Shown here piece by piece: positions 18,045 to 52,888 of a stretch of DNA of 64,000 nt. The stretch is from an uncultured Clostridia bacterium. GTDB lineage: Bacteria; Bacillota; Clostridia; Christensenellales; CAMQZB01. The notes beneath the pieces were generated by a model that saw only the letters and a program-made list of their open reading frames with translations, did no database searches and was not told the DNA's origin. The stretch lies in NCBI GenBank assembly GCA_947039455.1, contig CAMQZB010000002.1:97393-161392 (forward strand). The letters are read 5' to 3'. How positions within the stretch are numbered: position 1 is the first letter of the stretch; the number at the start of each line of letters is the position of its first letter. Made by a program: the position numbers and the translations under genes.

Positions 18045-19961
18045 CCTGAAGGCACATCCTATCGCAGCAAAACCCGCTTCAATAAATTCTATAATTTACC
18101 TGAATTAATGAGCATATTTAAAGAGGTTGCGGACATCAAAACAGCGGACATGTTAGACTTGCCAGTGCCAAAAGCTAACTTTCATACCATTGCTGTAAAA
18201 CCTACTGAAGTACAACGAGAGTTCGTTATGAACTGTGCGGATAGAGCTGAAGCGGTGAGAGATAGGTCAGTAGATAGCACCGTTGACAACATGTTGAAAA
18301 TTACAAACGATGGACGGAAAATCGCATTAGACCCAAGATTAATAAATCCACTTCTTGAAGATGAAAAAGTAACGAAAGTTAATGCTTGTGTCAATAATGT
18401 ATTCAACATTTGGAAAGATGGAACTACTCCAGAAAATAATGAAGATCCAACCAATCAAACCCAATTAGTATTTTGCGATATGTCAACACCAAAAACTGAT
18501 GGCACGTTCAATGTCTATGATGATATTAGAGAAAAATTAGTTAAAAAAGGTATGCAAAAAGAGCAAATAGCTTTCATTCACGAAGCTAAAACCGATATTC
18601 AAAAAGACAAACTATTTGCAAAAATGAAACGTGGCGAAATTCGAGTATTACTTGGTTCAACGCAAAAAATGGGTGCAGGAACTAATGTTCAAGAGCGATT
18701 AAAAGCAATTCACCACCTAGACTGTCCATGGAGACCAAGTGATTTAGAGCAGCGGAATGGACGAGTAATAAGACAAGGCAATTTGAATAAAGAAGTTGAT
18801 GTATATAACTATGTAACCAGTGAAACATTTGATGCGTATTTATATCAACTAGTAGAAAATAAGCAAAAATTCATATCTCAAATCATGTCAAGCAAAGCGA
18901 TAGTGAGAAGTGCGGAAGATATAGACGAGACAGCGTTATCATATGCTGAAATCAAAATGTTGGCAACAGGAAATCCCTACATAAAAGAAAAAATGGATCT
19001 AGATATTCAAGTTGCAAGATTGAAATTACTAAAGAGCAATTACCAAAACGAGATTTATCAACTACAAGATTTTATCTATAAAGATTACCCAACTCAATTA
19101 GCTGATGTGTTATCCAAAATAGACACAACTGAAAAAGATGTAGCAATTCAAATGACACACCCAGAGAAAATAAGTGACAAGAATTTCACTAATATGAATG
19201 TAATGGGTAAAGTGCATTACGACAAAGAAATGGCAGGTCGAGCCTTGCTTGAGAGTATGAAAGGCGTTGGGATTGATGAAAAAGAAGTAGGTGAGTATCG
19301 TGGGTTTAAGCTAATAGCGAATTACTCAATTTTCGAAAGCAAAACGAAACTAACAATCAAAAACAACGGACGGCGTACTATCGATATGGGCATTGACGTG
19401 TTCGGTAATATCCAAAGAATTGATAATGCAATTAATAACATTCCACTAAGATTAAATACATATAAAGAAGTCCTTACAGAGCTTGAAAACCAACTAGAGG
19501 TAGCAAAAGTAGAAGTTGAAAAAACATTCGATAAAGATGATGAATTAAATACAAAACTAGCAAGATTGAAAGAGCTTGACTCTCTATTAAATTTAGATAA
19601 AAGCACAGCGAAACAAGAAACTGAAGATCAACAAAACGCAAATGAAAGCAACGGAATAATCGAAACAACGCTATTTAGTTCGCATTGTGTATTTGACAAC
19701 GAAGCGCGAAACGCTAAGCTAATGCAAATGCCAAGTGATAGTGAATATGGCGACTATTGTTATTATCTTGAAAATTCTCTGATAGTAAGTGAAATTGATG
19801 GAGAAATCAATATAAAAGCAGATATAAGTAGTTCGATAAAGATATTCAACGATAAAACAGTTAAGAATATATCAATAATTGATTTTGTAAGACAGCAAGA
19901 AAATCGAATAAACCAAAGTGCGGAAAAAATCCGTAGTAATGAATTAGAAATAGCAATTTAA
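18045..19961 (+). pseudogene. 3' part of the interrupted polyvalent protein (helicase C-lobe and C-terminal tail)
   Basis: The frame reads PEGTSYRSKTRFNKFYNLPELMSIFKEVADIK..., then VFCDMSTPK, LLGSTQKMGAGTNVQ and HLDCPWRPSDLEQRNGRVIRQGN (helicase motifs IV-VI). It is in frame with 196-4544 once 4545-18052 is removed. Confidence 0.85.
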
Positions 19962-29609: not shown

Positions 29610-32288
29610 ATGGAAAGAATAATACCTAAAAGCAGCAAAGTAAAATACAACGTATTCAAAAATCTAAGTGTAAAAGACATTGTGTTCATATGTATTTCAG
29701 CAATCATTTCAACCTCGTTAGTAGTATCAAACCTACCGAATAAATGGTTGTACTTTGCAATAACAGTCTTTTTGTCGGTACTCCTAGTACTGAAAATCGA
29801 AGACGAAAGTTTATATAAAATGATATTTGCATATATGGTGCATTTAACATGTAAGAAACGATTTAGAAACACTAAAAGAAGAAACAATATGACCGAATTG
29901 CAAACAGTGAAAGCAATAAATGACGGAACGTTGGTATATAAAAAATCCTTTGCAAAAGTAATAGAGATTGAACCAATAGCATTCGCGTTAAAGTCGGAAG
30001 ATGAGCAAGACCGCTTGATAAATAAGTTCGCAAGAACCTTTGGGATACTATCCGACATGCTAGGTTCGGAGTTGCACATAGTAAAACTTTTGCGACCGAT
30101 TACTTATGATAAGAAGAAACTTATAAACGGAATAGTTCGAACATCTGAGCTTAATTATTTGAAAGAGCAAAGCCTTGTTAATCAAAATGAGTTTGAAAAA
30201 CGTATTGAAATAATAGGTTGCAATGAAGAATTGTATGACGGATTAGACAGCGATAAATTACTAAAAGAACATTTCTATTTTCAAATTTTCTCACAGTATA
30301 AAAATCAAGCCGCTGATCTATCCGAACTACTTATGAGAGAGCTAAAAGGCTGTTCCTTGCAATGTTCCGAACTGAATAATGAAGAACTAGGAATATACGT
30401 TAAAAATTCATATACCATTGATTTCGACGAACATGACTATCAAGGAAGCGATGAAAATGATGTAATAGAAAATGGCTACAACGAGAAAGAAATACGCGAC
30501 AAACTAATGCCGAAAGAAGTTGAAGTAAAATGGAATAGATGTATCGTTGACGGAACTCAAGTTTCTCACCTAAACGTAGTGGATTATCCCTTGTACGTAA
30601 ACAATGCATGGGGTTTTGAAGCCTTTCACATACCACAATCAAAAGCGACTTTAAAGGTCAAAATAAGGGACAGACAAAAAGCAATCAAGGAAGTAGATAA
30701 AACAATCAGCAACTTGAATATGCAGTATAGAGAGAGCAATAAGGACTCTGAAAAAACTGTAATTGAAACACACATTGAATCCCTTAGAGAGTTGCTCCAA
30801 AGATTACAACTTGGAAACGATAATCTATACGATGTTAATTTTGCGGTAACAACGTACGATAAAACCACAACGAAAAAACTAACCAATAGACGTGAAGCAA
30901 GAAAGATACTAGCCAACAACGGAATGAAAGTCAGCTACGGTTGGGGCGAGAGTTTAAAGTGGTTCATTGCGGAATCTCTAACAAGAAACGTAGTAGGTAA
31001 ATCCGCAGGAATAAACTCATCTAGCTTAGCAGGAATTTTCCCATTTATAGATTTTGGTATAGACGACGAAAACGGAGTATTCATAGGTGAGAGCAACAAC
31101 TATGCAAGCTTTTTAGACTTGTTTTATCGTGACGGAAAAGCTAGAGTAAACAGCAACGCATTTGTGGTTGGACAGTCAGGAATGGGAAAATCATTCTACA
31201 CAAAAACCTTGATGGCGCAGCTAGCAGCAATAGGCGTAAAAATAATATGTTTTGACCCAGAACAAGAGTATAAGCACTTTGCGGAAAACTTAGGCGGCGT
31301 ATCAATCGATGTAAGTTCAGCAAAAGGCGGAAGAATTAATCCGCTACAAATAATCAAGGAACTAGACAGCGACGAAGATGTTGAAGATGGAAATGCGTTC
31401 TTTTCTCACTTAAATTTCCTAGCAAGTTTTTTCAAAGCAATCATACCAAACATGGACAGCAACGTATTCGAATGTCTGAATACAATAGTGAAAAACATGT
31501 ATAACGATATAGGTGTTAATGAGCAAACGGATATATCAAAATTCGATAATAGCAAGTATCCAACCTTTGACGATTTGTATAAAATCATAGTAAAAGAACT
31601 AAAAAGCGATTCAATAGATTATGAGATTTCAACATTACGAATATTGAAAATACAACTAGAAAAATTTGCAACTGGCGGAAGATACAGCGGACTGTGGAAC
31701 GGACAAACAACATTGCAAATGGATAGCAACTTTATTAACTTTGATTTTAGATCGTTGTTAGTAACAGAGAACAAAACCCTAGCAAATGCACAAATGTTGT
31801 TAATCCTAAGATACTGCAATTTAGAAGTAATCAAGAATCTAGAGCTAAACAATCAAGGAATAAATCGAAAGATAGCAATAGTAATTGACGAAGCTCACGT
31901 GTATTTCAACAAAGAAATGATGATAGCATTAAACTTCTTTTCACAAATGGCACGCCGTATCCGAAAGTACAATGGCATGATAATGTTCACAACCCAAAAC
32001 ATAGCGGATTTCATTGCAAATAGTGAAATCGCTGATAAGACAACAGCAATATTAAATGCGTGTCAGTATAGCTTTATATACGGCTTACCGCCTAATGCAA
32101 TAACCGACTTGGTTGCGTTATACAAAATGTCAAAACCATTGAATGACAGCGAAATACAGTTTATAAAAGACGCTGAACAAGGCGAGATGTTCTCAATCAT
32201 ATCCGCAAACAGTCGAGTGGGAATTAAAGTTGTTTCCCCTAAGTACATACAAGAATTTATGATAAAAAAAGAAGAAAACGTAGCGTAA
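29610..32288 (+). CDS. VirB4/TraE-family conjugation ATPase with N-terminal TM segment(s)
   Basis: Walker A VVGQSGMGKSFYTK. Walker B AIVIDEAHVYF. N-terminal hydrophobic helices (VirB3-like fusion). Confidence 0.85.
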   Translation: MERIIPKSSKVKYNVFKNLSVKDIVFICISAIISTSLVVSNLPNKWLYFAITVFLSVLLVLKIEDESLYKMIFAYMVHLTCKKRFRNTKRRNNMTELQTVKAINDGTLVYKKSFAKVIEIEPIAFALKSEDEQDRLINKFARTFGILSDMLGSELHIVKLLRPITYDKKKLINGIVRTSELNYLKEQSLVNQNEFEKRIEIIGCNEELYDGLDSDKLLKEHFYFQIFSQYKNQAADLSELLMRELKGCSLQCSELNNEELGIYVKNSYTIDFDEHDYQGSDENDVIENGYNEKEIRDKLMPKEVEVKWNRCIVDGTQVSHLNVVDYPLYVNNAWGFEAFHIPQSKATLKVKIRDRQKAIKEVDKTISNLNMQYRESNKDSEKTVIETHIESLRELLQRLQLGNDNLYDVNFAVTTYDKTTTKKLTNRREARKILANNGMKVSYGWGESLKWFIAESLTRNVVGKSAGINSSSLAGIFPFIDFGIDDENGVFIGESNNYASFLDLFYRDGKARVNSNAFVVGQSGMGKSFYTKTLMAQLAAIGVKIICFDPEQEYKHFAENLGGVSIDVSSAKGGRINPLQIIKELDSDEDVEDGNAFFSHLNFLASFFKAIIPNMDSNVFECLNTIVKNMYNDIGVNEQTDISKFDNSKYPTFDDLYKIIVKELKSDSIDYEISTLRILKIQLEKFATGGRYSGLWNGQTTLQMDSNFINFDFRSLLVTENKTLANAQMLLILRYCNLEVIKNLELNNQGINRKIAIVIDEAHVYFNKEMMIALNFFSQMARRIRKYNGMIMFTTQNIADFIANSEIADKTTAILNACQYSFIYGLPPNAITDLVALYKMSKPLNDSEIQFIKDAEQGEMFSIISANSRVGIKVVSPKYIQEFMIKKEENVA

Positions 32289-32316: not shown

Positions 32317-33291
32317 ATGAGTAACGAAGTAAGTAGAAGTGTAAGCAAATTAAACTCAAGTAAGTTTAGGCAACAAATGTACGCTGAAAACATACCTGAA
32401 GAAATGAAACAGCTACCAAACTGGGTGTGTTATCGCGCATTCCCAAATACTGAAAAAATAGGCAAATACAAAAAACAATTAGTTGATCCAAACATTGATA
32501 GCAAAATCACATGGGCGAAATCAAACGAAAGAACCACATGGGGAACGTATGAAAAAGCTGTAAGTTTTGCAATGAGAAATAACTGTACTGGAATAGCATT
32601 CGCACTAGAGAAATCCTTAGGAATATGCTGTGTTGACTTGGACGATTGTTTCCCTGATGGAAAGATAAGCGATACAGCAAAAACCATGTTAAAACAGTTT
32701 GGAGATACCTATTCGGAGAAATCTATTTCGCACAATGGAATACATATATTTCTAAAAGGCGAGCTACCGAAAGAGTACGTACAAAGGAATGAAGAGATTG
32801 AAATGTATGATGACGTACGTTTCATATCAATGACAGGAACGAAACTATTGTATTCAAAATCATACTTAAAAACCATACCAAACCTAACAGCGATAAACAA
32901 GAAATATCTTGGGGAAAAGAAGATAATCGTACCCCAAAAGATAACGCCAATTAGGTGTGGCTTAGTTGATGAAAGAGTAATAATAGACGAGCTGAATTAC
33001 TATCCAAAATACCGTGCATTAATGAGCGGTGATACTTCAGAATACGGTGGCGACAAGTCAAGAGCGGACATAGCTTTATGCATGGGCATAGCTTACTATC
33101 ACAAAGATGTAAATACCATTGATAGCGTATTTAGACAAAGCGGCTTGTATAGAGAAAAATGGGATAGCGGTGGTTACGCAAAAATAACAATTCAAAAGGC
33201 AATACCTTTCCAAAAGAAGAACTTCGATTGGGAAGCATATTATAAAAGACAGTCTTACACAAAGACAAAAAGCGCACAATTAGATATCTAA
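32317..33291 (+). CDS. Prim-Pol type DNA primase/polymerase domain protein
   Basis: NWVCYRA...GIAFAL...CCVDLDDC...NGIHIFLKGELP (Prim-Pol core), plus SRADIALCMGIAYYHKDVNTIDSVFRQSGLYREKWD (primase C-terminal helper motif). Confidence 0.6.
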   Translation: MSNEVSRSVSKLNSSKFRQQMYAENIPEEMKQLPNWVCYRAFPNTEKIGKYKKQLVDPNIDSKITWAKSNERTTWGTYEKAVSFAMRNNCTGIAFALEKSLGICCVDLDDCFPDGKISDTAKTMLKQFGDTYSEKSISHNGIHIFLKGELPKEYVQRNEEIEMYDDVRFISMTGTKLLYSKSYLKTIPNLTAINKKYLGEKKIIVPQKITPIRCGLVDERVIIDELNYYPKYRALMSGDTSEYGGDKSRADIALCMGIAYYHKDVNTIDSVFRQSGLYREKWDSGGYAKITIQKAIPFQKKNFDWEAYYKRQSYTKTKSAQLDI

Positions 33292-33307: not shown

Positions 33308-33685
33308 ATGTTAAGATTTGAAGGCAAAGGCAGAGTAGTAAAAGATTTTGATGTGGAGACAATCAAAACAAAAGCAGGAAAAGAAATTGCAAAAGCAGTG
33401 GTAGTGGTCGCGTTCAACAACGGAACCGAAAAAGCTACAGGAGAAGACAAACCATCTACATTCTTACAAGTAGAGCTATGGGACAAACTAGCAACAAGAG
33501 CAGAAAACTTCGCCACAAAAGGCAGTCTAGTAGACATCAAAGGCGGCGTATTGCCAAACAATTACGAAAAAGACGGCAAAACAATCTACGGTTTCAAATA
33601 CGTAGCCAACGACATAAACGTCTACGCCACAAAAACCACCGACAACACAAAATCCCCCCAATCCAAAGAAGACATGCCATTCTAA
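33308..33685 (+). CDS. ssb: Single-stranded DNA-binding protein
   Basis: 125 aa with an OB-fold-like core (FLQVELWDKLAENF..KGSLVDIKG) and an acidic C-terminal tip EDMPF. Confidence 0.8.
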   Translation: MLRFEGKGRVVKDFDVETIKTKAGKEIAKAVVVVAFNNGTEKATGEDKPSTFLQVELWDKLATRAENFATKGSLVDIKGGVLPNNYEKDGKTIYGFKYVANDINVYATKTTDNTKSPQSKEDMPF

Positions 33686-33689
33686 CTAA
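33647..33689 (+). repeat. Direct repeat copy 1 (43 bp, last 12 codons and stop of ssb)
   Basis: ACAAAATCCCCCCAATCCAAAGAAGACATGCCATTCTAACTAA. It matches 36953-36995 at 42 of 43 positions. Confidence 0.95.
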
Positions 33690-33694
33690 CAAAA

Positions 33695-33731
33695 GAGCCG
33701 ACAATATCACTCGATATTATCGGTTCTTTTT
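33695..33731 (+). terminator. Rho-independent terminator after ssb
   Basis: GAGCCGACAATATC-ACTC-GATATTATCGGTTC followed by TTTTT. Confidence 0.7.
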
Positions 33732-33885
33732 ATTATGGTTAAATTTTTTCGTTTTATGTATACTTTTAGTAGACAAGCAATAATAAAATAGTATATAGTG
33801 TATACTATAAGTAGCAATTAATGCCTAAACCCATTAAATCAAATATGTGCTAGAATATATTTATCAAGAAATTAGGAGAAAAAAT

Positions 33886-35778
33886 ATGAAAAGTAAAGAA
33901 TATAATGAGATTGCCTCAACTAAGCAATTTGGTAAATATTTAAGCCAAATTATTAATGAAATGGGATGCAGTACAAGAAAATTCGCAATGGATTTTTCGG
34001 AGTATTGCGAATTGGACAGTGAAAGTGAATTAAAAAGCGTTTACAAATGGTGTCAAGGCAGAGGTATGCCAAGTGTGTTTAAACTATATAAACTTTCCCG
34101 ATTCATTGGCAAAAGCATGGAGAATTTAATTACTGCAGGAGACGACTGTGACATTGCTCCAAACTATCCAACTGTTCTAGAGATTGCTTACGACAAAGAA
34201 AATTGGAGTAAGAAACTTATGGAAGTAAAGAACCGTACTAATGACTTTGACGATTTTTGTTCTGGACAGGACCGTTGCCATAAAGAAATGATTGACTACG
34301 CCATGGAAGCGAAAAATGTTGAATTAGTAAAACACATAATAGACTCTAAAGATATAACATGTTATATGAATAATGAATATATGAAATATTTAATCACTAT
34401 GGAAGAAAATGAATTTGTTAAGCCGGAAATAAAGAAATATATGTCATCGTATATCACTGAAGTCAATGACGGAAATTGGCAACTAAAACAAGATGTTTTT
34501 AAATCTGATTCATCATTATTTAATGATTCAAAACAGCTAAACCCAGAATATAGAATTAATCCAAATATGAAGGAATTTCTTGAAGATATGGTTGAGAGAA
34601 ATAAGATTGATGATTTAATTACTGCATTTAACTTAATTCAAAATTATTATGATACATTAATTAGTGAAATTGAGTCGGAAGAAAATTTTGACAAAAGACC
34701 GTTTTGTTGCGAAGGTGGTTGGGATTCTAAAGTATATTCTAAAATTGAAGGTAGTTCTAAGCGTATAGTATTAGGTAATCTTGTTGAATTTACAATATGT
34801 TTTAGTGAAAGTGTGGCAAAACTAGAAAATAACGAAGTGAATAGCGCGTATGCTGATCTCACGGAAACTGCTGAAACGATTAAAACATGTTGTATGGAAA
34901 GTCGAGCGAATAAAATTACTTCAATGAACATGAGAATGCAAGATGATAATATTAATAACGCAATCATGTTTAGCCGTGAAAATGAAATTTATTATATGTC
35001 AATGCCATTACTAAATTCAATTGCAGGACAAAAAGATTTGATTCAGAAATTTAAAACTATAAAAAAGAACTATTTTTCTGGTGTAATGTTTGAAGTTGAT
35101 ATCCCAAAAGAAAAAAGTTTTGTAAACAAAAATCTTAAGTGCAGAATTCTAGGGTATGATTTTGATGTAGATCAAATGGACTCACTGTTGATTAAATATA
35201 AACAAGATATTAATATGAAATATTTAGAATTAATACAAAAACTGAATGAAGACGGCTATGATATATGTGCAGAAGATTTTAAACTTACTCCATATATTGA
35301 TGAATCAAGTGTAGTAATGAAATTGATTGAGAAAGGTCTTGGTGATAGTTATGCAGAAGTAATGGATCGCATATTGCTAAATCGTGGAATATACCAAGTA
35401 AACGACATGAATATTATGAACATTATATCAATGATTAAAGATTCTGGAGGTATAGCTATATTAGCTTGTCCGTTATTAGCATATAAACATAATGAGGAAA
35501 TAGAATTATCTACTGAAGAAGTGACTGAATTTATTGATATACTAAATGATCGTCAAACACTAGAGCATTTTACTGGGTGGGAAATTCGTTACAATAATTA
35601 TGTAGTTGAAGGCGAACAATATGATGAAATAATTAAAAAATTAAATGGACGAAAAAGAAAAGTGTCAATTGGTTATGATACAAACATGGTTTTAAATGAT
35701 GTAGTTATTGATGAAAAAGATTATAAGAGCTTAGCTGATACTTTGAAATCAAAAGCAAATAAGGTGAGAACATGCTAA
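33886..35778 (+). CDS. HTH-domain protein with a C-terminal degenerate PHP (TrpH/YciV-like) domain; first gene of the viperin cassette
   Basis: N-terminal XRE-like HTH (KQFGKYLSQIINEMGCSTRKFAMDF). The C-terminal segments CRILGYDFD...YLELIQKLNEDGYDI...IKDSGGIAILACPLLAY resemble PHP motifs (H.lG.., GG.a.lAHP) with His replaced by Cys. RBS AGGAGA before the ATG at 33886. Confidence 0.45.
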   Translation: MKSKEYNEIASTKQFGKYLSQIINEMGCSTRKFAMDFSEYCELDSESELKSVYKWCQGRGMPSVFKLYKLSRFIGKSMENLITAGDDCDIAPNYPTVLEIAYDKENWSKKLMEVKNRTNDFDDFCSGQDRCHKEMIDYAMEAKNVELVKHIIDSKDITCYMNNEYMKYLITMEENEFVKPEIKKYMSSYITEVNDGNWQLKQDVFKSDSSLFNDSKQLNPEYRINPNMKEFLEDMVERNKIDDLITAFNLIQNYYDTLISEIESEENFDKRPFCCEGGWDSKVYSKIEGSSKRIVLGNLVEFTICFSESVAKLENNEVNSAYADLTETAETIKTCCMESRANKITSMNMRMQDDNINNAIMFSRENEIYYMSMPLLNSIAGQKDLIQKFKTIKKNYFSGVMFEVDIPKEKSFVNKNLKCRILGYDFDVDQMDSLLIKYKQDINMKYLELIQKLNEDGYDICAEDFKLTPYIDESSVVMKLIEKGLGDSYAEVMDRILLNRGIYQVNDMNIMNIISMIKDSGGIAILACPLLAYKHNEEIELSTEEVTEFIDILNDRQTLEHFTGWEIRYNNYVVEGEQYDEIIKKLNGRKRKVSIGYDTNMVLNDVVIDEKDYKSLADTLKSKANKVRTC

Positions 35779-36602
35779 ATGTAGTAAATTTACATATTAC
35801 GGAAAGATGTATGTTCAGCTGTAAGAATTGTTTTGCAATATTCCATAAAAATAAAGAGTTAGAATTAAGTGAGTGGAAACTTGTAGTAGATAATATAAAC
35901 CATTATTTCAAAACAGCTGGAATTAAAAATGGTCGTATCAATTTAGCAGGCGGAGAGCTATTAATGGTAAGTTTCGTTGTTGAACTAATAACATATATTA
36001 AAAGCGTAGGACTTGATGTTTCGATAATAACAAACGGCGTAATGTTGAATAAACAATTAATTGATGATGTAGCAGAACACATTTCAATGATTGGAATTTC
36101 AGTAGATTCTATTTCTAAAGATACCAATATCAAAATAGGTAGATGTGATTGCGATAACAACGTACTCAACGTGGATCAGTTAATCGAAATTGCAAAATAC
36201 ATAAAAAGCAAGGGTATAAAATTAAAGATCAATTCAGTAATCACAAAACTGAATTTAGATGAAAATTTAAACGAATTTTACAATGAAATAAATCCTGATA
36301 GGATAAAGATTCTTCAAATGCGAGTTATGGGCGAAATGAATAAAAATAGTGAAAACTTAGCAATATCTGAATCAGAGTTCCAAACATATTGTGAAAAAAT
36401 AAATGCAAAAAACCTAGTTATAGAAACTAGTGAGGATATGGAAGATTCTTATTACATAGTAAATCCTAAAGGCGAATTGCAACGAAATTCAAACAATAAA
36501 TTGACTACAGTAGGTAATTTGTTAGAAGAAAATTTCAACGACATGATAAAAGACTGTAAAATAAATGCAGACAAAGTAGAAAAAAGATACAAAGGAGAAT
36601 AA
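35772..36602 (+). CDS. Prokaryotic viperin (pVip) radical-SAM enzyme
   Basis: Aligns by eye along its length with viperin: VNLHITERCMFSCKNCFA (C...C..C), INLAGGE, VSIITNG, GISVDS...IGR, KINSVITKLN, NPDRIKILQ, DSYYIV. ATGCTAA overlap with the upstream gene. Confidence 0.85.
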   Translation: MLNVVNLHITERCMFSCKNCFAIFHKNKELELSEWKLVVDNINHYFKTAGIKNGRINLAGGELLMVSFVVELITYIKSVGLDVSIITNGVMLNKQLIDDVAEHISMIGISVDSISKDTNIKIGRCDCDNNVLNVDQLIEIAKYIKSKGIKLKINSVITKLNLDENLNEFYNEINPDRIKILQMRVMGEMNKNSENLAISESEFQTYCEKINAKNLVIETSEDMEDSYYIVNPKGELQRNSNNKLTTVGNLLEENFNDMIKDCKINADKVEKRYKGE

Positions 36603-36606
36603 TCAA

Positions 36607-36933
36607 ATGGAAATAAATCTAGAATTAGGTTACCCAACTGTAGCAGAAGCTATGACGAATTTAGAAGGGTACATTAAAACATACAAACAACGTAATGAGA
36701 AAGTTGCAATCATAATCCACGGATACGGAAGCAGCGGTAAAGGTGGCGCTATAAGAACTAAAACCAGACAATGGTTAAAAGCTCAAGTTAACAGCAATAA
36801 AATCAAAGGAGTAGTACATGGCGAAGACTTTGGAATGTTCGATGATACATCAAGAACGATTAATGCAATTGATAAAGATGCCAAAAAATACTACGGAAAA
36901 TCAAACCAAGGTGTAACATTAGTATTAATATAA
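36607..36933 (+). CDS. Smr-domain-like small protein
   Basis: INLELGYPTVAEAMTNLEGYI...VAIIIHGYGSSGKGGAIRTKTRQWL...GVTLVLI follows the Smr pattern. The canonical LDLHG motif is replaced by INLELG. Confidence 0.55.
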   Translation: MEINLELGYPTVAEAMTNLEGYIKTYKQRNEKVAIIIHGYGSSGKGGAIRTKTRQWLKAQVNSNKIKGVVHGEDFGMFDDTSRTINAIDKDAKKYYGKSNQGVTLVLI

Positions 36934-36952
36934 CATCATATTTGTTGTAACT

Positions 36953-36995
36953 ACAAAATTCCCCCAATCCAAAGAAGACATGCCATTCTAACTAA
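36953..36995 (+). repeat. Direct repeat copy 2 (orphan duplicate of the ssb 3' end)
   Basis: ACAAAATTCCCCCAATCCAAAGAAGACATGCCATTCTAACTAA. It is not attached to an ORF, because stop codons lie upstream. Confidence 0.95.
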
Positions 36996-37020
36996 TTAGT
37001 AGTGGCAATACATAACAAAA

Positions 37021-37057
37021 AATAGCCTACTAACTTCGTGTAAGTTAGTAGGCTATT
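37021..37057. terminator. Bidirectional terminator hairpin, member of a repeated hairpin family
   Basis: AATAGCCTACTAACTT-CGTG-TAAGTTAGTAGGCTATT. A near-identical copy lies at 38250-38287. Confidence 0.7.
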
Positions 37058-37154
37058 AAAATTCTAAGTAGTCATATTAAATAATGGGTTAGACAAAGAA
37101 ACATATATATTTTCTTAAGAATTACACATTGTCATTTGTGATTAAATAAAAGCA

Positions 37155-38075
37155 CTAAGCAAGATTATCAATAGCATATTGAGCTTCTTCCGCAGTAAAT
37201 TTCTCACCATATTCAGATATTAATTGATCATATATGGAATTTTTAGACATACTCATAGTGTCGGAATAATTTTTTGCTTTTGCCAAAGCATTCTCATTCC
37301 AATCAGCAACGATATTGTCAACAGCATATTGAGCTTCTGCTGCAGTAAATTGCTCACCATACTCCGAGATTAATTGGTCATATATGGATTTTTTAGACAT
37401 ATGCATAGTGTCAGAATAATTTTCAGCTTTTGCTAAAGCGTTTTCATTCCAATTGGCAACGATATTGTCAATAGCATATTGCGCTGCTTCAGGTTCAAAA
37501 TCTTCACCATATTCAGAAATTAGTTGATTATATATACTTATTTTAGACATATGCATTAAATCAGAATAAGTTTTTGCTTTCTTTAATGCATTTTTAAATT
37601 CAATATTAGGTGCTTTTCCTAAAGAATATGTAACTGTAATTTTCTTACCTTCTAATATTTTGTCATCAATTGTTTTGCTTTGTTTCAAAAACAATCCTTT
37701 TGCTATAGTGTCAGAATGGTCGTATTCAAAATTACAAACTATTTTGTTTGCTTTAGCCCAAACTTCAATTTCATTTAATTCCATTGAACTAAAATCTATT
37801 ATTGTAACATAATTTTGGCTGTCGATAGGTGGAGTTGTTTCAGTTTGTTCTTGTCCATCCAAATTATTATTTGGAAGTTCACCTCCGCTAAACGATGAAG
37901 TAATAATTGCTATAGCCAATAGACCAAAAATGACAGATAATATTATTTTCTTACCAATGCTAAAATGTTTTTTTCTAACCCACATAAAAGGTATTCCTAC
38001 ATAAGGGACTATTATGAGTAGTATCCAAAAAAACCAGGTTTTGTCGTACCAAAGTACTTTATTTGTTTTTTCCAT
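37155..38075 (-). CDS. Membrane-anchored Ltp-family (host surface-exposed lipoprotein-like) protein with three tandem Ltp repeats
   Basis: Three ~50-aa repeats NYSDTMHMSKKSIYDQLISEYGEQFTAAEAQYAVDNIVADWNENALAKAK. N-terminal TM helices. Start at MEKTNK (38075) after AGGAGGA. Confidence 0.7.
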   Translation of the reverse strand: MEKTNKVLWYDKTWFFWILLIIVPYVGIPFMWVRKKHFSIGKKIILSVIFGLLAIAIITSSFSGGELPNNNLDGQEQTETTPPIDSQNYVTIIDFSSMELNEIEVWAKANKIVCNFEYDHSDTIAKGLFLKQSKTIDDKILEGKKITVTYSLGKAPNIEFKNALKKAKTYSDLMHMSKISIYNQLISEYGEDFEPEAAQYAIDNIVANWNENALAKAENYSDTMHMSKKSIYDQLISEYGEQFTAAEAQYAVDNIVADWNENALAKAKNYSDTMSMSKNSIYDQLISEYGEKFTAEEAQYAIDNLA

Positions 38076-38249
38076 TTTTTTCCTCCTAAATATTTCTCCA
38101 TGAGTATACATGCAATTTCGATAATTGTCAAGTTGAGGTGACTGTAATAAATTAATTAAATATAATTAGTTATGTTTAAACTTTTAAACCATCAAAATTA
38201 AATAAAAGTATATAAACAATTTGCTGAAATTGCAAACATAACAAGAATA

Positions 38250-38287
38250 AATAGCCAACTAACTTCATTCTAAGTTAGTTGGCTATT
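38250..38287. terminator. Terminator hairpin, second copy of the repeated family
   Basis: AATAGCCAACTAACTT-CATTC-TAAGTTAGTTGGCTATT, downstream of cat on the minus strand. Confidence 0.7.
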
Positions 38288-38339
38288 TGAATTTTTTGTG
38301 ATAAAAACTGTAAACTCTATAAATTATGCTAATACAATA

Positions 38340-38981
38340 TTATAGTTTGAAATCATTGATCCAATTTTGAAAATGCTCAATAAATTGTGAAAGGTGAAAC
38401 CCATCACAGACAGCATGGTGAACTTGAACTGCTAGAGGAAGCAATGTTTTTCCATTGCTATCGTAGTATTTTCCGATAGTAAATATTGGTGGTAAACAGT
38501 CGAATCCATTTTGTAAATTTAAATTAAATCCAGTAAAACTCGTCCATGGAATACATGAAACGTTGAAACAGTTTTTGTTAATTATAGGTTTTGAATTTTT
38601 GAAATCACTTTTGAATTGAATCATATCGCCAGTATAATTTTTCATGAAAGAATCGAAATTATCGCTAAATTCGGTCCAAACATTAGTTATAGTCTCTGAA
38701 TCAGCGTGAAACAAGGTGTAGCAAGGATTTGAAAAGCTGTAATAACCGATATTGTTTTCTTCGTCAATGTCCATACGAAATTCTTTATGTTGATTTACAA
38801 TGCAAGATAAACCGTACAAGATTGAAGGAAAAAACTTCAACTTATGATGATGTATTTCTTTTAAAAAATCAGTGATATCCAAATTTATAGTCATACTATA
38901 AGTGCAAGGGACTGAATTGAAATAATGAGTGTATGAATCTTTTCTATTCCAAGTAGGCATATCGATTTTATTAAATACCAT
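38340..38981 (-). CDS. cat: Type A chloramphenicol O-acetyltransferase
   Basis: 213 aa. WNRK..Y.HYF..VPCTYSMT, FNVS.IPW.SF.GFNLN and the catalytic VHHAVCDGFH are present. RBS AGGAGA. Confidence 0.95.
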   Translation of the reverse strand: MVFNKIDMPTWNRKDSYTHYFNSVPCTYSMTINLDITDFLKEIHHHKLKFFPSILYGLSCIVNQHKEFRMDIDEENNIGYYSFSNPCYTLFHADSETITNVWTEFSDNFDSFMKNYTGDMIQFKSDFKNSKPIINKNCFNVSCIPWTSFTGFNLNLQNGFDCLPPIFTIGKYYDSNGKTLLPLAVQVHHAVCDGFHLSQFIEHFQNWINDFKL

Positions 38982-42843: not shown

Positions 42844-43184
42844 TAAATTTGCCAAACTGTTTAAATCTAAAGTGAAATACCAAAACAACAGTAGCACAAC
42901 AAAAAAGAAAAGTTGTCCAACAAAACAAAAATCAAATAAACCATACCAAAGACAACAACAAAGAGTTCTGTAAAACACAGAACTCTTTGTTAATTCACAC
43001 ACTAAAAACCAAAATCTTACCACCGTAAACACCCCAAAAAAGCTGCAGGTTTCCCTGCAAAAAAGCTTTTCAGCGTGGTACCACGTGATTTTCCCTTATC
43101 CCATAAGGAAAAACCACCTATTTTTACAAAATAGCGGTACCCACCCTTATCCTGCTCAAAAAATATAAGCTAAATAAGTAGATT

Positions 43185-44405: not shown

Positions 44406-45902
44406 ATGCCGCAAAAAAAAGAAGAATTCAACCTAAATAATCATCTATACGAGGCTTGCAATATTTTAAGGGGCCCAATTAATCAAGATGACTATAAAAG
44501 CTATGTAACGCCATTATTGTTTTTTAAGAGAATATCTGACGTCTATGATGAGGAAACGGCAATCGCACTAAAAGAATCAGGTGGGGACTATGAGTATGCT
44601 GAATTTCCTGAAAATCATAGTTTTGTTATACCTAACAACTGTCATTGGAATGATATTCGAGAGAAGACATTAAACATCGGAGCAGCAATTTCAAATGCAA
44701 TGGTAACAATTGAACGCAAAAACCCTAAAACATTATACGGTCTTTTTACAAGTTTTGATGATGCAAACTGGACGGACAAAAATAAGTTGTCAGATGAGCG
44801 ATTGAAAGACCTTGTTGAACATATGTCTACAGTAACAGTGGGTAACTCAAACTATAATGCTGATTTAATGGGAGACGCATATGAATTTCTAATTAAGAAA
44901 TTTGCAGATTTATCAAAAAAAAATGCAGGAGAATTTTACACTCCTAGATCTGTTGTAAAGTTACTAATAAAGATTCTTGATCCAAAATCAGGCGAAACAG
45001 TATATGACCCAGCATGCGGTACTGGAGGAATGTTGATAGAAGCAATTCGTCATATGCATGGAGACAGACTTTCGTATGGTAAAATTTATGGACAAGAGAA
45101 AAATCTTTCAACTTCAGCTATAGCAAGAATGAATTTATTTTTGCACGGCGCAAAGGATTTTAAAATAGAACAAGGAGATACTCTACGCGCTCCATTCTTC
45201 ATAACTGGAGGACAGCTAGCGACTTTTGATTGCGTTATTGCTAATCCGCCTTTTTCGCTAGATAATTGGGGTTCTGAAATCTTTGAAAGCGATATGTATG
45301 GGCGTAATTTATACGGAACGCCGCCTGCTAAAAATGGTGACTTTGCTTGGATACAACATATGATTAAATCGATGGCGTTTAAGACTGGACGAGCAGCGAT
45401 TGTGCTTCCACAAGGCGTTTTGTTTAGGGGTAGTAAGGAATATGAATTACGCAAACAATTAATTGAGTCAGACAAATTAGAAGCCGTTATAACACTTGTA
45501 AACAACTTGTTTTACGGAGCAACTATTCCAGCCTGCTTACTTATTATTAGAAGCAAAAAAGAAGAGAAGCATAAGGGGAAGATAGCTCTAATAGATGCGT
45601 CAACAACGTATACGCCAAAAAGGGCTCAAAACGTATTAACAGACCCGGATGATATTGATAAAATTTACGAACTTTATAAAAATTTCGAAGATGTTGAAGA
45701 AAAAGTAAAAATAGTTTCTATTGATGAAATTAAAGAAAAAGATTATACTTTATCAGTTAATAGGTATGTGGAGAAAAAACAAGCAGAATCTATATCATTA
45801 GATGAGGCGAAAAAGAATTTCTATGCTTCTATGGAAGAAGTTTTTAAAGCGGAAGAAAATCTTAAAAAACTTTTACAAGAAGGAGGATATATTAATGAGT
45901 AA
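44406..45902 (+). CDS. hsdM: Type I R-M methyltransferase subunit HsdM, copy 1
   Basis: N-terminal HsdM domain (LLFFKRISDVYDEE), FYTPR, DPACGTGGML and IANPPFS. Confidence 0.9.
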   Translation: MPQKKEEFNLNNHLYEACNILRGPINQDDYKSYVTPLLFFKRISDVYDEETAIALKESGGDYEYAEFPENHSFVIPNNCHWNDIREKTLNIGAAISNAMVTIERKNPKTLYGLFTSFDDANWTDKNKLSDERLKDLVEHMSTVTVGNSNYNADLMGDAYEFLIKKFADLSKKNAGEFYTPRSVVKLLIKILDPKSGETVYDPACGTGGMLIEAIRHMHGDRLSYGKIYGQEKNLSTSAIARMNLFLHGAKDFKIEQGDTLRAPFFITGGQLATFDCVIANPPFSLDNWGSEIFESDMYGRNLYGTPPAKNGDFAWIQHMIKSMAFKTGRAAIVLPQGVLFRGSKEYELRKQLIESDKLEAVITLVNNLFYGATIPACLLIIRSKKEEKHKGKIALIDASTTYTPKRAQNVLTDPDDIDKIYELYKNFEDVEEKVKIVSIDEIKEKDYTLSVNRYVEKKQAESISLDEAKKNFYASMEEVFKAEENLKKLLQEGGYINE

Positions 45903-47394
45903 TCGAATTACATTAGACGATCTCAAAAGCTACCTGTGGAATTCAGCAGTATTATTACGTACTCATATTGATGCGGGCAGCTATAAACAATATATTTTTC
46001 CCTTACTATTTTTCAAACGTCTTTGTGACGTTTATGATGAAGAATATCAAATAGCATTAAAAGAATCTAATGATGATATGGAATATGCAGAATTCGCCGA
46101 AAATCATCGCTTTGTGATACCAAAAGGTTATCATTGGAAAGATGTAAGAGAAACAACTTCAGATGTTGGAAAAACTATTCAAAAGGCTTTATATGAAATA
46201 GAGAGAGCCAACCCATTGAAATTAAACAAAGTTTTTGGGGACGCTGTTTGGACAAATAAGAATCGCCTACCTGACAATTTATTGAAAGATATTATTGAAC
46301 ACTTTAGTTCTCGGACGCTTTCGATTGAAAACTGTCCTGAAGATGAACTTGGTATTGGATATGAATATCTAATCAAGAAATTTGCTGATGATAGTGGACA
46401 TACTGCACAGGAATTTTATACTAACCGCACAGTAGTTCATTTGATGACTGAAATGCTAAAGCCAGAAAGTGAAGAATCTATTTACGACCCAACTTGCGGT
46501 AGTGCTGGAATGCTAATTTCTGCAGCAGCGTACCTAAAAGAGCAAAATAAGGAATATAGAAACTTGAAAATATATGGTCAAGAATTAAACTATCTATCTT
46601 CAGCTATAGGAAAAATGAACTTATTTTTGCATGGTATTAAGGATTTTGAAATTGTTAACGAAGACACATTGCTGAATCCTGCGTTTATAGAAAATAACAA
46701 ACTGAAAAAATTTGACGTAGTTCTTGCAAACCCTCCTTACTCAATAAAGCAGTGGAATAGGGAAGCTTTTGCAAGCGATAAATATGGACGAAACTTTTTA
46801 GGCACTCCACCACAAGGTAGAGCAGATTATGCCTTTTTTCAGCATATATTAGAAAGTTTAAATCCTAAAACAGGCCGTTGTGCAATACTTTTTCCTCATG
46901 GAATTTTGTTCCGTAATGAAGAAAAAGATATGCGCGAAAAGTTAATTAAAAGTGACCTTGTTGAGTGTGTTATTGGACTAGGTCCAAACCTATTTTTCAA
47001 TTCTCCAATGGAGGCTTGTATAATTGTTTGTCGTACTAAAAAATCTTCTGAAAGGAAAGGCAAGATACAGTTTATAAATGCTATCAATGATGTGACACGA
47101 AAAAACGCTGAAAGTTATTTGGAAAATGATCACATAACGCATATTGCAAAATGTTATTCAGACTATGAATCCTTTGAAGGATTTTCCCATATTGCGACTG
47201 TTAAGGAAATTGAGAAGAATAATTTCTCTTTAAGCATACCCTTGTATGTATCAAATGCGCAAAGTGATAAAACTGAGGACTTGCGCACTTTAGATGAATG
47301 TATATCTGATTGGTTGGAAAGTAGTTTTGAATTAAAAAATTCATATAACACTTTAAAAACAGTAATGAGTGAAGGTGGTGAAATCAATGGCTAA
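45895..47394 (+). CDS. hsdM: Type I R-M methyltransferase subunit HsdM, copy 2 (divergent paralogue)
   Basis: LLFFKRLCDVYDEE, FYTNR, DPTCGSAGML and LANPPYS. ATG at 45895 after AGGAGGA, overlapping the copy 1 stop by 8 nt. Confidence 0.9.
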   Translation: MSNRITLDDLKSYLWNSAVLLRTHIDAGSYKQYIFPLLFFKRLCDVYDEEYQIALKESNDDMEYAEFAENHRFVIPKGYHWKDVRETTSDVGKTIQKALYEIERANPLKLNKVFGDAVWTNKNRLPDNLLKDIIEHFSSRTLSIENCPEDELGIGYEYLIKKFADDSGHTAQEFYTNRTVVHLMTEMLKPESEESIYDPTCGSAGMLISAAAYLKEQNKEYRNLKIYGQELNYLSSAIGKMNLFLHGIKDFEIVNEDTLLNPAFIENNKLKKFDVVLANPPYSIKQWNREAFASDKYGRNFLGTPPQGRADYAFFQHILESLNPKTGRCAILFPHGILFRNEEKDMREKLIKSDLVECVIGLGPNLFFNSPMEACIIVCRTKKSSERKGKIQFINAINDVTRKNAESYLENDHITHIAKCYSDYESFEGFSHIATVKEIEKNNFSLSIPLYVSNAQSDKTEDLRTLDECISDWLESSFELKNSYNTLKTVMSEGGEING

Positions 47395-48562
47395 ATATAA
47401 ATTTACTGATATTGCAATAAATAGCACTGCAAAAAAGAAGCCTATTGACGAAGATAAATATACGTATTTAGGACTTGAACATTTAGATAGTGAAAATTTG
47501 CAAATAACTCGTTATGGTTCACAAGTCGCACCTATTGGTGAGAAATTGATTATGAAAAAAGGTGATGTGCTTTTTGGCAAACGTAGAGCCTACCAAAAAA
47601 AGGTAGCAATTGCGCCTTTTGACGGTATATTTTCAGCACATGGGATGGTTCTTCGACCTAGAGAGGACGTAGTAGATAAAAACTTTTTTCCGTTTTTCAT
47701 TAGCTCTGACTACTTTTTAGACAAAGCTATTAGTATATCTGTGGGTGGGCTTTCACCTACTATAAATTGGAAAGATTTAAAAGATACAGAATTTAATTTA
47801 CCTGATATGGAAGAACAAAAACGCCTAGCAAAAATTCTTTGGGCCGCTGAAGACTTAAAGCAAAAAACATATAGCGCACTCAAACTTAGCGAAATACACA
47901 AGGATGTTTATATAAAAGATCTTTTGGAAGCAAAGATTTTGTTAGATGAATTGGATTTAAAATCTAAAAATGAAATTTCAAATACATTTTCAATTGCACG
48001 TACTGCAAAGGAATTGCATAATGTTGAGATTTCTGAATATGAAATGATAAAAAATTTGCCACCAGATTGGGATCAAAAAAGATTAGCAAGTTTAATTAGT
48101 ATATCATCTGGGAAAATGATTAAATTTCAAAATTATTCTGAGAAATATAAATTTCCTGTTTATGGAGGCAATGGCGTAATTGGGTATTGGAATAATAGTA
48201 ATGTTAATGCAGGCACTATTGTTATAGGAAGGGTGGGGTCATGTGGTTCTTTACATGTAACCAATGACCAATCATGGGTTACGGATAATGCTTTTATTGT
48301 TGATTATGATAAAGATATTCTAATAAGTGAATTTTTATTACATTGGTTAAAGTTGTTGAAATTAAATGAAAAATCAAATTCATCGGTGCAACCCGTTATA
48401 TCGGGTAAAGACATTTATCCGCTAATTATCAGCATACCTAAAATAAATGTTCAAAATTCAATCGTAAACCATCTTTCAACAATTCAAACAAATTTTGACA
48501 TTTTGAATGAAAGTGTAAGCCGAATAAGTAATTTGCAAAAAAGAATAGTTAAGGAGCTGTAG
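47387..48562 (+). CDS. hsdS: Type I R-M specificity subunit HsdS
   Basis: Two target-recognition halves separated by a conserved helical spacer (LPDMEEQKRLAKILWAAEDL). RBS GAAGGTGG. Overlaps the hsdM2 stop. Confidence 0.85.
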   Translation: MAKYKFTDIAINSTAKKKPIDEDKYTYLGLEHLDSENLQITRYGSQVAPIGEKLIMKKGDVLFGKRRAYQKKVAIAPFDGIFSAHGMVLRPREDVVDKNFFPFFISSDYFLDKAISISVGGLSPTINWKDLKDTEFNLPDMEEQKRLAKILWAAEDLKQKTYSALKLSEIHKDVYIKDLLEAKILLDELDLKSKNEISNTFSIARTAKELHNVEISEYEMIKNLPPDWDQKRLASLISISSGKMIKFQNYSEKYKFPVYGGNGVIGYWNNSNVNAGTIVIGRVGSCGSLHVTNDQSWVTDNAFIVDYDKDILISEFLLHWLKLLKLNEKSNSSVQPVISGKDIYPLIISIPKINVQNSIVNHLSTIQTNFDILNESVSRISNLQKRIVKEL

Positions 48563-48563
48563 G

Positions 48564-51464: not shown

Positions 51465-51480
51465 AAATGGAGGATAAATC

Positions 51481-52248
51481 ATGTTAATAAATTTATTAGG
51501 AAGTAAAGTTGCTCATTCAACATTGGGAGAAGGTGAAATTTCTGTCCAAGAAGATTCTCAAATTTTCGTGAAATTTAGTTCAAAATCAATGAGATTTCAA
51601 TATCCATTGGGTTTCGAACAGTTTATTAAATTAAGTGATAAAAAACTGCAGAAGAGTATGGATTTAGAGATTGAAAAATTCAAAGTATCAAAAGCTGAAG
51701 AGCAAGAGCGTGAAAGACTTCGATTGTTGGAAATTGAAAGAATAAAAGTAATGGAAAAAGAAAAAAAAGATGCTGAAGAAAAGCCTACTACAAAAAAACC
51801 GAAAGTGCCGAAAGACCGTGGTGAACCTATTGATCTTAGTACATTAATCATAGGGAATACATATTCAAATAGCGAAGTAGCAAATTTGTTCTCTTGCGCT
51901 AATATTGGTGGCCTAAGAAAATCAAATAGTGCAAATGCTTTGGTCACTATATCAAATTATACTAAATCTCTTTATGCAGATAAGTGGCACGATAACGTCC
52001 TTCATTACACTGGTTCGGGCCAGATAGGTGATCAAGAATTAAATCGAAAACAAAACAAAACTCTAAATCAATCTAGATCAAATGGTGTTGATATTCACTT
52101 ATTTGAAGTTTTTAAAAAAGGTAATTATGTTTACAATGGTATATTCGAATTATGCGGTGAACCATATCAAGAGAAGCAAGAAGATGATAATGGCAAACTA
52201 CGTAATGTGTGGATGTTTCCATTGAAATTGAAAAAAGACAATATTTAA
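51481..52248 (+). CDS. Protein with a C-terminal SRA/YDG-like or ScoMcrA-SBD-like (PUA-fold) DNA-modification reader domain and no nuclease domain
   Basis: GGLRKS...ALVTISN......LHYTGSGQIGDQELNRKQNKTLNQS...VDIHLFEV...NYVYNGIFEL follows the YTG.G...Q.....N.aL...pi.lF.....Y.Y.G pattern. It starts 16 nt after the hsdR stop. Confidence 0.4.
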   Translation: MLINLLGSKVAHSTLGEGEISVQEDSQIFVKFSSKSMRFQYPLGFEQFIKLSDKKLQKSMDLEIEKFKVSKAEEQERERLRLLEIERIKVMEKEKKDAEEKPTTKKPKVPKDRGEPIDLSTLIIGNTYSNSEVANLFSCANIGGLRKSNSANALVTISNYTKSLYADKWHDNVLHYTGSGQIGDQELNRKQNKTLNQSRSNGVDIHLFEVFKKGNYVYNGIFELCGEPYQEKQEDDNGKLRNVWMFPLKLKKDNI

Positions 52249-52880: not shown

Positions 52881-52888
52881 TTAATATT

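Follow-up and report, generated by a model that had tools for sequence, protein, structure and literature searches.

How did a three-gene anti-phage operon that encodes no recombinase come to lie between two copies of the end of ssb, the last backbone gene of a conjugative element before its variable region? The question is raised by a 64,000-nucleotide stretch of DNA from an uncultured Clostridia bacterium (GenBank assembly GCA_947039455.1, contig CAMQZB010000002.1), which we call the window and whose positions are used throughout. Positions 33690-36952 of this window form a self-contained anti-phage module of the "moron" type, built around a prokaryotic viperin (pVip) and placed in the variable region of a Mollicutes-type conjugative element, and the 43-bp duplication at its two ends is a genuine insertion scar. 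Several routes could have brought the module here, and the one that we tentatively favour, with a probability of roughly 0.4, is recombination through the short shared end of ssb, the partner being either a sister element or a circle that arose from such an element.

A duplicated ssb end around a discrete block

The direct repeat consists of two 43-nt copies on the plus strand, at 33647-33689 and 36953-36995, which are identical at 42 of 43 positions (consensus ACAAAAT[C/T]CCCCCAATCCAAAGAAGACATGCCATTCTAACTAA; full sequence of the first copy, ACAAAATCCCCCCAATCCAAAGAAGACATGCCATTCTAACTAA) and agree without interruption over at most 35 bp. When up to three mismatches were allowed, these were the only two matches in the 64-kb window, where 100 shuffles gave an expectation of 0, and a scan of the window down to 25 of 43 matches, which is where shuffled sequence already gives noise, brought up no degenerate third copy. 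The 31-nt core of the repeat likewise had 0 matches in the metagenome and genome contig collections. Copy 1 begins on a codon boundary and comprises ssb codons 114-125, which encode TKSPQSKEDMPF, the TAA stop and 4 further nucleotides. Copy 2 is an orphan that is part of no open reading frame (ORF): translated in frame it reads TKFPQSKEDMPF*, and stop codons precede it in the same frame. The sole difference between the copies is a C>T change (33654 compared to 36960), equivalent to Ser116 to Phe in ssb. The initial annotation of this DNA had described just such a duplication of the last 12 codons and stop of ssb, with one C-to-T difference and a second copy attached to no ORF, and our analysis reproduces its coordinates and its reading of both copies, adding that the repeat is unique in the window and runs 4 nt past the stop.

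Both edges of the repeat are sharp, as the identity of the flanks drops off at once on either side. The inserted block ends in ...GTTGTAACT before copy 2 and begins with CAAAAGAGCC after copy 1, and the letters directly 3' of copy 2 are TTAGTAGTGGC. Centred on the right edge of copy 2 is a 10-bp perfect palindrome, ACTAATTAGT. The 43-mer itself contains no inverted repeat whose arms reach 6 nt, so that dyad symmetry of the core type is missing; the arms that were detected near the repeat sit in the flanks or straddle the edges, and the sole strong one belongs to a terminator hairpin.

Two abrupt edges and a non-synonymous change in the orphan are also what a much simpler event could leave behind. 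In such an account, one illegitimate deletion would have joined the cassette's end to position -43 of a sister or tandem ssb, and copy 2 would be the leftover of a gene, recognised by no enzyme. A single illegitimate event would need no specialised enzyme, the change in the orphan would fit either a diverged sister copy or decay, and recombining tandem arrays formed by integrative and conjugative elements (ICEs) are documented (PMC2786100). We nevertheless consider this account unlikely, as the window holds no other remnant of a second backbone copy; that the orphan starts on a codon boundary and ends 4 nt past the stop would moreover be a coincidence for a random deletion, in itself a weak point.

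The block between the copies measures 3.3 kb in all and contains the terminator of ssb, its own promoter and three co-oriented genes. Its first feature is the hairpin and T-run that ends ssb (33698-33731, plus strand; CCGACAATATCACTCGATATTATCGG followed by TTCTTTTT), which the terminator hairpin scan reports at 33698-33723 and whose inverted repeat was recovered in the dyad search. A promoter-like site follows at 33770-33809 on the same strand. Its boxes, TAGACA and TATAGT with an 18-nt spacer, span 33770-33799 and match at 10 of 12 positions, and a 16-nt near-palindrome read from the sequence at 33794-33809 (TATAGTGTATACTATA) covers the -10 box and is a candidate operator for the helix-turn-helix (HTH) protein encoded by the first gene. 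The three genes lie at 33886-35778, 35772-36602 and 36607-36933, all on the plus strand; the stop of the first overlaps the ATG of the second in ATGCTAA, and 4 nt separate the second from the third. Apart from a 196-nt leader the three genes fill the interval and leave no room for another. No recombinase was found among the genes of the block, so that the tight operon without a recombinase that had been noted from the letters is what the block indeed contains.

The composition of the block also sets it apart. Its G+C content is 29.7% compared to 35.6% for the backbone, and the G+C content at third codon positions (GC3) of its three genes is 0.23-0.27 compared to 0.35-0.42 for the backbone genes VirB4, primase and ssb. 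Together, these observations support a block that is discrete, compositionally distinct, transcriptionally self-contained and free of a recombinase.

A sharp-edged direct repeat on both sides of an insert could also be a target-site duplication, in which a 43-nt staggered break at the end of ssb was filled in after a foreign fragment had been captured, by a transposition-like process or by repair. Two other cargo units, described below, are flanked by repeats of about 50 nt, which would suit this explanation. Those repeats differ in length, however, and are terminator hairpins, and we know of no element class that makes a 43-nt duplication. No inverted repeat joins the ends of the block and no transposase is present, so it does not qualify as a transposon or insertion sequence, and we regard a target-site duplication as improbable. 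Among known cassette types, an integron attC cassette was dropped, as the window lacks a tyrosine recombinase and nothing that resembles attC is formed at the right end of the block; in the flanking hairpins, a perfect terminator stem leads into a T-run. A dif/Xer module and a transposon were dropped as well, since their defining sites or enzyme are missing.

As the sequence is a metagenome scaffold (ENA ERZ28620936 scaffold_21), the arrangement might finally be a product of assembly. An empty site and a separate cassette, circular or placed elsewhere and sharing the 43-mer, could have been threaded into one path, because k-mers that fall short of the perfect 35-nt stretch would give one and the same graph topology for an insert and for an empty site plus circle. 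This we hold to be very improbable. The same arrangement is found in all four of the public contig records that bear the exact SSB, pVip, Smr or Ltp proteins (the last two being the third protein of the operon and the product of the next cargo gene), the single-base difference is consistently assigned, and the usual k-mer sizes of assemblers are larger than 35. Such an artefact would also itself imply a mobile cassette.

The boundary behind ssb and the routes of insertion

Where the backbone ends can be judged from a single informative relative, represented by the loci L003-L005 (GCA_028748465.1 and a sister assembly), whose VirB4, primase and SSB are 48%, 51% and 40% identical to those of the window. 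The gene order of L003 is the same, with large proteins, VirB4, primase and ssb, and tblastx detects synteny from about 21.9 kb of the window up to ssb and none past it. In L003, ssb is followed by a small gene for a ribbon-helix-helix (RHH)-like protein, a 274-aa gene, HipA and ParE/YafQ toxin-antitoxin pairs, and a tyrosine integrase that sits about 7 kb downstream of ssb; its own ssb end is not duplicated. Because synteny with L003 stops at ssb and unrelated cargo then follows, the comparison supports the ssb stop codon as the boundary between backbone and cargo.

The one similarity downstream of ssb is a structured non-coding block of about 125 nt (window 43046-43170, corresponding to L003 15475-15600), within which stretches of 12-20 bases are identical and the palindrome GTGGTACCAC occurs. 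On the minus strand it is predicted to form a multi-hairpin fold (z = -6.65), with 4 compensatory pairs in a two-sequence consensus fold. It matched no Rfam family, and its motif had 0 matches in viral contigs. It is conserved between elements whose proteins are just about 50% identical, and an origin of transfer, a single-strand origin and a small RNA are candidates for its function. As judged from this alignment, the variable region that lies between ssb on the left and the non-coding block as right-hand anchor measures 9.4 kb in the window compared to 1.2 kb in L003, and in the window it opens with the viperin block. The idea that the host chromosome begins to the right of ssb was dropped, as the block shared with L003 recurs 9.4 kb further on and the conjugative element therefore continues there; the GC3 of the cargo is similar to that of the presumed chromosomal genes.

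Variants of this region were sought in several ways. A megablast search with 29.6-40.5 kb against plasmids and phages gave no match, look-ups of the exact SSB, pVip, Smr and Ltp proteins returned the same scaffold layout only, and a word-index homology search with SSB returned SSB itself only. Viral contigs, searched with the first protein of the operon (630 aa) and with SSB, yielded nothing related, or just SSBs at 27-36% identity. For the primase, alignment against genome contigs found none, a degenerate motif had 0 matches in metagenome contigs, and tblastn against plasmids and phages found relatives at 28-34% identity only. An empty site, other cargo between the same repeats, a circular junction or a second cassette was thus not found in the public collections searched, because these hold no close relative. 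The initial annotation had proposed to look for such variants in related elements; L003 carries unrelated cargo after ssb, and neither an empty site nor cargo between the same repeats came to light in these collections. A comparison of the near-identical assemblies L003 and L004 as a possible cassette swap was rejected, since their difference downstream of ssb is only a 155-bp tandem duplication; it lies at L004 14742-14951, in the cargo gene after the RHH-like gene, and shortens the ORF from 274 aa to 186 aa.

In the route that we favour, the incoming DNA would have brought along the last 43 bp of ssb in a copy of its own and would therefore have come from a sister element, or from a circle excised from one, in which the module already stood behind ssb. 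A single crossover, or a one-sided event anchored by homology, within the 43-bp segment would have inserted the module. The enzyme could have been host RecA or an annealing protein of the element, with nothing supplied by the cassette. Insertion would have duplicated the segment, restored ssb and displaced the old copy, the C/T difference being either gained later or already there, and recombination between the two copies would permit a precise loss of the module. We infer this recombination from features that are directly observed, namely a repeat that is genuine, sharp-edged and unique, the gene content of a block that is self-contained and has neither mobility genes such as a recombinase nor terminal inverted repeats, the break in GC3, and the end of synteny at ssb, together with the lack of a core-type dyad in the repeat and of a tyrosine recombinase in the window. 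A precedent exists in the SXT/R391 family, whose hotspots begin right after the stop codon of a core gene and for which recombination of the bet/exo type has been proposed, though not shown (PMC2791158), and ICE-encoded recombination is known to yield hybrid elements (PMC2786100).

The repeats around other cargo units bear on this route as well. Next to the viperin block, the gene for an Ltp-type lipoprotein is bracketed by two related 50-nt hairpins with perfect stems (37014-37063 and 38243-38293, 88% identical), in which the stem is kept because a T/A change in one arm is matched by a compensating change in the opposite arm; the topology of this bracket matches that of the viperin block. In L003, the ParE/YafQ pair is flanked by terminator copies of about 50 nt (17438-17488 and 18107-18159, 90-100% identity), and the HipA and ParE/YafQ units share a 41-nt promoter-like repeat (16252-16292 and 17502-17542, 85% identity). 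Units in the variable regions, the viperin block, Ltp and the ParE/YafQ pair of L003, are therefore flanked by three different repeats on the scale of 50 nt. Since the three repeat sequences are unlike one another, a single att-specific enzyme explains them poorly, and recombination through short shared sequences fits them.

Several points weigh against recombination through the ssb end. The three unlike repeats may also fit a plain reuse of related terminators. For exchange of the RecA type, 43 bp with at most 35 bp of unbroken identity comes close to the lower limit, and within the window, 64 kb out of the scaffold's 186 kb, no single-strand annealing protein was detected. The public collections searched yielded neither a sister element nor an empty site or circle, and the first joining of the cassette to ssb is pushed back to an unseen illegitimate event. 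Site-specific integration, too, classically leaves such a signature, a repeat through which a gene regains its 3' end and stop codon.

This signature gives rise to a close, if somewhat doubtful, rival, in which the two 43-mers would be attL and attR of a module without a recombinase, and a tyrosine or large serine recombinase of the element or the host would target the 3' end of ssb in trans and also excise the circle. The repeat rebuilds the last 12 codons and the stop of its target, and in length it falls among the identity segments that tyrosine recombinases use. Cis-mobilizable elements (CIMEs) have by definition lost their integration and transfer genes while keeping attL and attR (PMC6323972). 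The palindrome on the right edge of copy 2, the tyrosine integrase that the nearest relative carries about 7 kb past ssb, and a large serine recombinase encoded in the window at 4821-6743 would all be at home in such a scheme. On the other side, that serine recombinase is part of a separate insertion whose junctions bear no likeness to the 43-mer, and no tyrosine recombinase was found among the ORFs of the 64-kb window. The repeat, moreover, lacks inverted binding sites on either side of a spacer, further downstream there is neither a second cassette nor a decayed att copy, the ssb end of L003 is not duplicated, and the core of the 43-mer occurs nowhere else in the genome and metagenome collections. 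The 364-aa ORF on the minus strand at 57348-58442, checked in case it hid an integrase, does not encode one, and the window contains no tRNA gene and no Rfam family that could serve as an att landmark.

The initial annotation had read the repeat as an att duplication or an exchange at a fixed hotspot, brought about by a recombinase acting in trans or by homologous exchange between variants of the element. What stands of this is the discrete block at the boundary of backbone and cargo, while the 43-mer is at most a candidate att site; of the two routes, homologous exchange is mildly favoured.

Among known systems, the nearest published counterpart is offered by the hotspots of SXT/R391 elements. 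As in these elements, cargo is found at a fixed intergenic point of a conserved conjugative backbone, and the inserts in hotspot 2 of those elements start right after the traA stop (PMC2791158). Their contents are often defence or toxin-antitoxin genes, and cargo without a recombinase has there too been ascribed to a proposed route of homologous recombination (PMC2791158, PMC2786100). The families are unrelated, however, as the present element is of the Mollicutes type and SXT/R391 belongs to Gammaproteobacteria; the hotspots of SXT/R391 are not described as leaving a duplicated core-gene end; and our comparison covers two elements, in which no gene of the bet/exo type was seen.

Pseudo-SCC elements, which are related to the staphylococcal cassette chromosome (SCC), sit at the 3' end of rlmH in staphylococci. 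With these and with CIMEs the block shares the lack of a recombinase and the position between direct repeats containing the target gene's 3' end, of which the proximal one rebuilds that gene. In those systems the repeats are chromosomal att sites of known integrases, whereas the target here lies inside a conjugative element, the repeat has no recognisable recombinase-binding symmetry, and neither accretion nor excision was seen. CIMEs are att-flanked elements without integration or transfer genes, found for example in Streptococcus thermophilus (PMC6323972, PMC5704250). The block resembles phage morons in being an independent unit with its own promoter, terminators and deviating G+C content between two genes of a mobile element; a duplicated gene end is atypical for morons, and the host element here is conjugative and not a phage.

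Hotspot cargo and elements of the moron or CIME type are thus a known class, and what is new is the combination of the ssb end as duplicated segment, a Mollicutes-type host element and the architecture of the operon. The capture of defence cargo at fixed points of conjugative elements is largely unexplained, and in SXT/R391 the precise boundaries of the hotspots were noted while the mechanism was left open (PMC2791158). The present insertion has kept a scar, and because the duplication implies that the incoming DNA bore the end of a backbone gene, the possible routes narrow to exchange with a sister element or att-like integration. It also extends the biology of defence islands to the little-known conjugative elements of the Mollicutes type.

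The viperin operon and its partners

The middle gene of the operon (35772-36602, plus strand) encodes the radical-SAM enzyme pVip. It matches the PADLOC pVip model over its full length (8.8e-71) and NCBIfam NF038283 with 245.5 bits, compared to a curated cut-off of 180, and its best matches in the PDB are the solved viperins 6b4c, 7n7i and 5vsl (5e-28 to 1e-23). The CxxxCxxC motif of radical-SAM enzymes is present as CMFSCKNC at residues 13-20 (C13, C17 and C20). Enzymes of this family convert a nucleoside triphosphate into a 3'-deoxy-3',4'-didehydro (ddhNTP-type) chain terminator that blocks phage transcription, and from what is known of the family the product of the present pVip would halt phage transcription in the same manner. 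Prokaryotic viperins were reportedly described as defence systems by Bernheim et al. in 2021.

The operon thus resembles known pVip systems in its middle gene, which passes the curated viperin model and carries the cysteine motif, and differs from them in its partners. The partner described for pVips is a nucleotide kinase (bioRxiv 10.1101/2023.09.13.557418), whereas the flanking genes here encode an HTH protein with an inactive PHP domain and an Smr protein. Among the papers listed by a full-text literature search on viperin and Smr, none had the term "Smr domain", and the architecture appears to be undescribed so far.

The first gene (33886-35778, plus strand) encodes a 630-aa protein that has no match of its own in Pfam, NCBIfam or PHROG, and for which a HMMER search of 1.84 billion representatives found just two full-length homologues, at 28% identity. 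Partial matches by way of homologues reveal an N-terminal HTH of the XRE type with ankyrin-like helices and a C-terminal PHP domain. The homology to PHP proteins is genuine, but in the alignment the metal-binding His of HxH, DHD, H(ILGYG) and LAHP has been lost in every case, and GxDxH appears as GYDTN; both full-length homologues lack the metal-binding motifs in the same way, so that none of the three shows the signature of an active PHP enzyme. Because these motifs are replaced, the C-terminus is probably a non-catalytic, PHP-derived domain joined to a DNA-binding domain, and the protein is likely a putative regulator or sensor. It is translationally coupled upstream of pVip and would probably bind the near-palindrome over its own -10 box.

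Both full-length homologues (L021 8001-10416 and L022 8001-10538) sit in defence islands, with large helicases, HD-CE/HATPase, Fic, type I restriction-modification, PIN and KAP NTPase genes as neighbours. The small gene that comes after each of them is uncharacterised and differs between the two islands (157 aa and 141 aa), with no relation of one to the other. As each homologue in its defence island has a different small gene after it, the comparison suggests that the family may act as a modular regulator or sensor with interchangeable effectors.

The third gene (36607-36933, plus strand) encodes a stand-alone Smr-domain protein of 108 aa (Pfam PF01713, 36.4 bits compared to a gathering cut-off of 25.7). 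The match begins at position 7 of the model and leaves the region of the N-terminal catalytic DxH motif unaligned, which by eye reads N-L-E. We propose that the protein would serve as an accessory partner with a nuclease fold. Its glycine-rich loop, IIIHGYGSSGKGGAIR, resembles the Walker-A region of PPK2 (Pfam PPK2, 0.004; PDB 3czp, 0.046); this likeness is weak and local and the protein is too short for a kinase, and it may hint at nucleotide or phosphate binding. Single-sequence AlphaFold models were too poor for use, with a pLDDT of 34 for the 630-aa protein and 47 for the Smr protein.

These partners differ from the kinase linkage described so far; should they prove functional, they might shed light on the regulation of bacterial viperins or on the way in which cells deal with chain-terminated transcripts. 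A far-reaching proposal would join both halves of the problem: the 43-bp end of ssb would be a dedicated docking site of Mollicutes-type conjugative elements for defence cassettes that lack a recombinase and are mobilised in trans, comparable to SCC or integrons, and the three genes would form a new three-component viperin system in which Smr handles stalled or truncated transcripts and ribosomes that result from chain termination. We consider this joint proposal speculative and decidedly unlikely.

The closest viperins, at no more than 49% identity, are paired with other proteins. At 45-49% identity, three loci (L015 2958-7855, L016 7001-11812 and L017 3867-9462) share another trio, composed of pVip, an AAA_11/AAA_12 helicase of about 850 aa that resembles Upf1/Dna2, and a familyless protein of about 480 aa. 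This trio may be another undescribed type of viperin operon.

The conjugative element and its further cargo

The backbone directly upstream of the insertion, all on the plus strand, comprises a conjugation ATPase of the VirB4/TraE type (29610-32288; Pfam P-loop_TraG 6.4e-20, AAA_10 and DUF87), whose nearest homologue is P0003 at 48% identity, a primase-polymerase (32317-33291; Pfam NrS1-1_pol-like_HBD 1.1e-15, PHROG DNA primase 4e-54) and ssb (33308-33685; Pfam SSB 7.1e-10). Further upstream, the backbone encodes a methylase/SNF2 helicase whose gene is split, a DUF3848 protein and two proteins of very large size. One of these two, with 1057 aa, scores 132.6 bits with NF045848 (cut-off 90) and 85.2 bits with NF045889 (cut-off 70), the models of the Mycoplasma ICE families MMCAP2_0566 and Mbov_0396. 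As this protein passes both models and VirB4 is present, we assign the element to this family by its protein matches, and the backbone is related to the ICEs of Mycoplasma, of the Mollicutes type.

Mycoplasma ICEs (MICE) are defined by CDS5, CDS17 and CDS22 (PMC9465063). The present element shares with them a homologue of VirB4/TraE (CDS17) and the transmembrane-family protein Mbov_0396/MMCAP2_0566. It differs in that the DDE recombinase CDS22 and CDS5 (TraG) are not in the 64-kb window, past the start of which the element extends, in that its relative L003 carries a tyrosine integrase, and in that its genes read through in the standard bacterial code.

Homologues of VirB4 at about 35% identity sit in contexts that look like the chromosomes of small genomes (L006 3146-5824 and L009 6870-12706). 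In L006 the gene stands alone, and in L009 it is paired with a protein of about 1036 aa that is like the 1057-aa protein of the window; the neighbours are housekeeping genes (NifU, iPGM, GreA, TsaD/E and Mfd), with neither primase nor ssb nearby. These loci may be ICE remnants or domesticated modules. For a comparison of the cassette they were set aside as uninformative, being two-gene modules in chromosomal contexts.

The split gene of the backbone results from another insertion. About 13.5 kb (4579-18060) separate the two parts of an Eco57I-methylase/SNF2 helicase gene, with the SNF2 N-domain in the left ORF (196-4578) and Helicase_C in the right ORF (18108-19961). The insert carries the large serine recombinase with its DUF4368 domain, an HTH_36 protein, a Mob_Pre relaxase, a YpsA/DprA-like protein and a complete type II-A CRISPR-Cas9 locus with cas9 (10271-14305), cas1 and csn2. 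Its CRISPR array (16221-17915) consists of 26 repeats of 36 nt and 25 spacers, none of which matched the sequences compared in our analysis, and a repeat-like sequence lies upstream of cas9 at 10200-10236. The insert looks like a mobilisable element that carries Cas9 inside the conjugative element.

On the other side of the viperin block, copy 2 is followed by a hairpin, Ltp, chloramphenicol acetyltransferase, 3-methyladenine glycosylase, a WYL regulator and DJ-1, and further downstream by a type I restriction-modification system and then SRA and HNH proteins. The hairpin (37021-37057, perfect over 16 bp) is able to terminate in either direction, for the cassette on the plus strand and for Ltp on the minus strand, and it stands outside the repeat-bounded block. 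Ltp (37155-38111, minus strand), the next cargo unit, is a superinfection-exclusion lipoprotein with three Ltp repeats (Pfam Lipoprotein_Ltp 1.9e-75; PHROG superinfection exclusion 1e-83). The chloramphenicol acetyltransferase gene (38340-38981) belongs to a cluster whose members, identical to at least 90%, also lie on other contigs, among them one of 388 kb. As the exact SSB, pVip, Smr and Ltp are not recorded on that 388-kb contig, the gene also occurs outside the present arrangement.

From 44406 to 59741 the cargo goes on as a defence island. It opens with the type I system, in which tandem HsdM paralogues (44406-45902 and 45802-47394) are accompanied by HsdS and HsdR, and continues with an SRA-domain protein, an HNH protein of 666 aa, several familyless ORFs and a GIY-YIG protein. 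Chromosomal-looking genes for ABC transporters start at about 60 kb.

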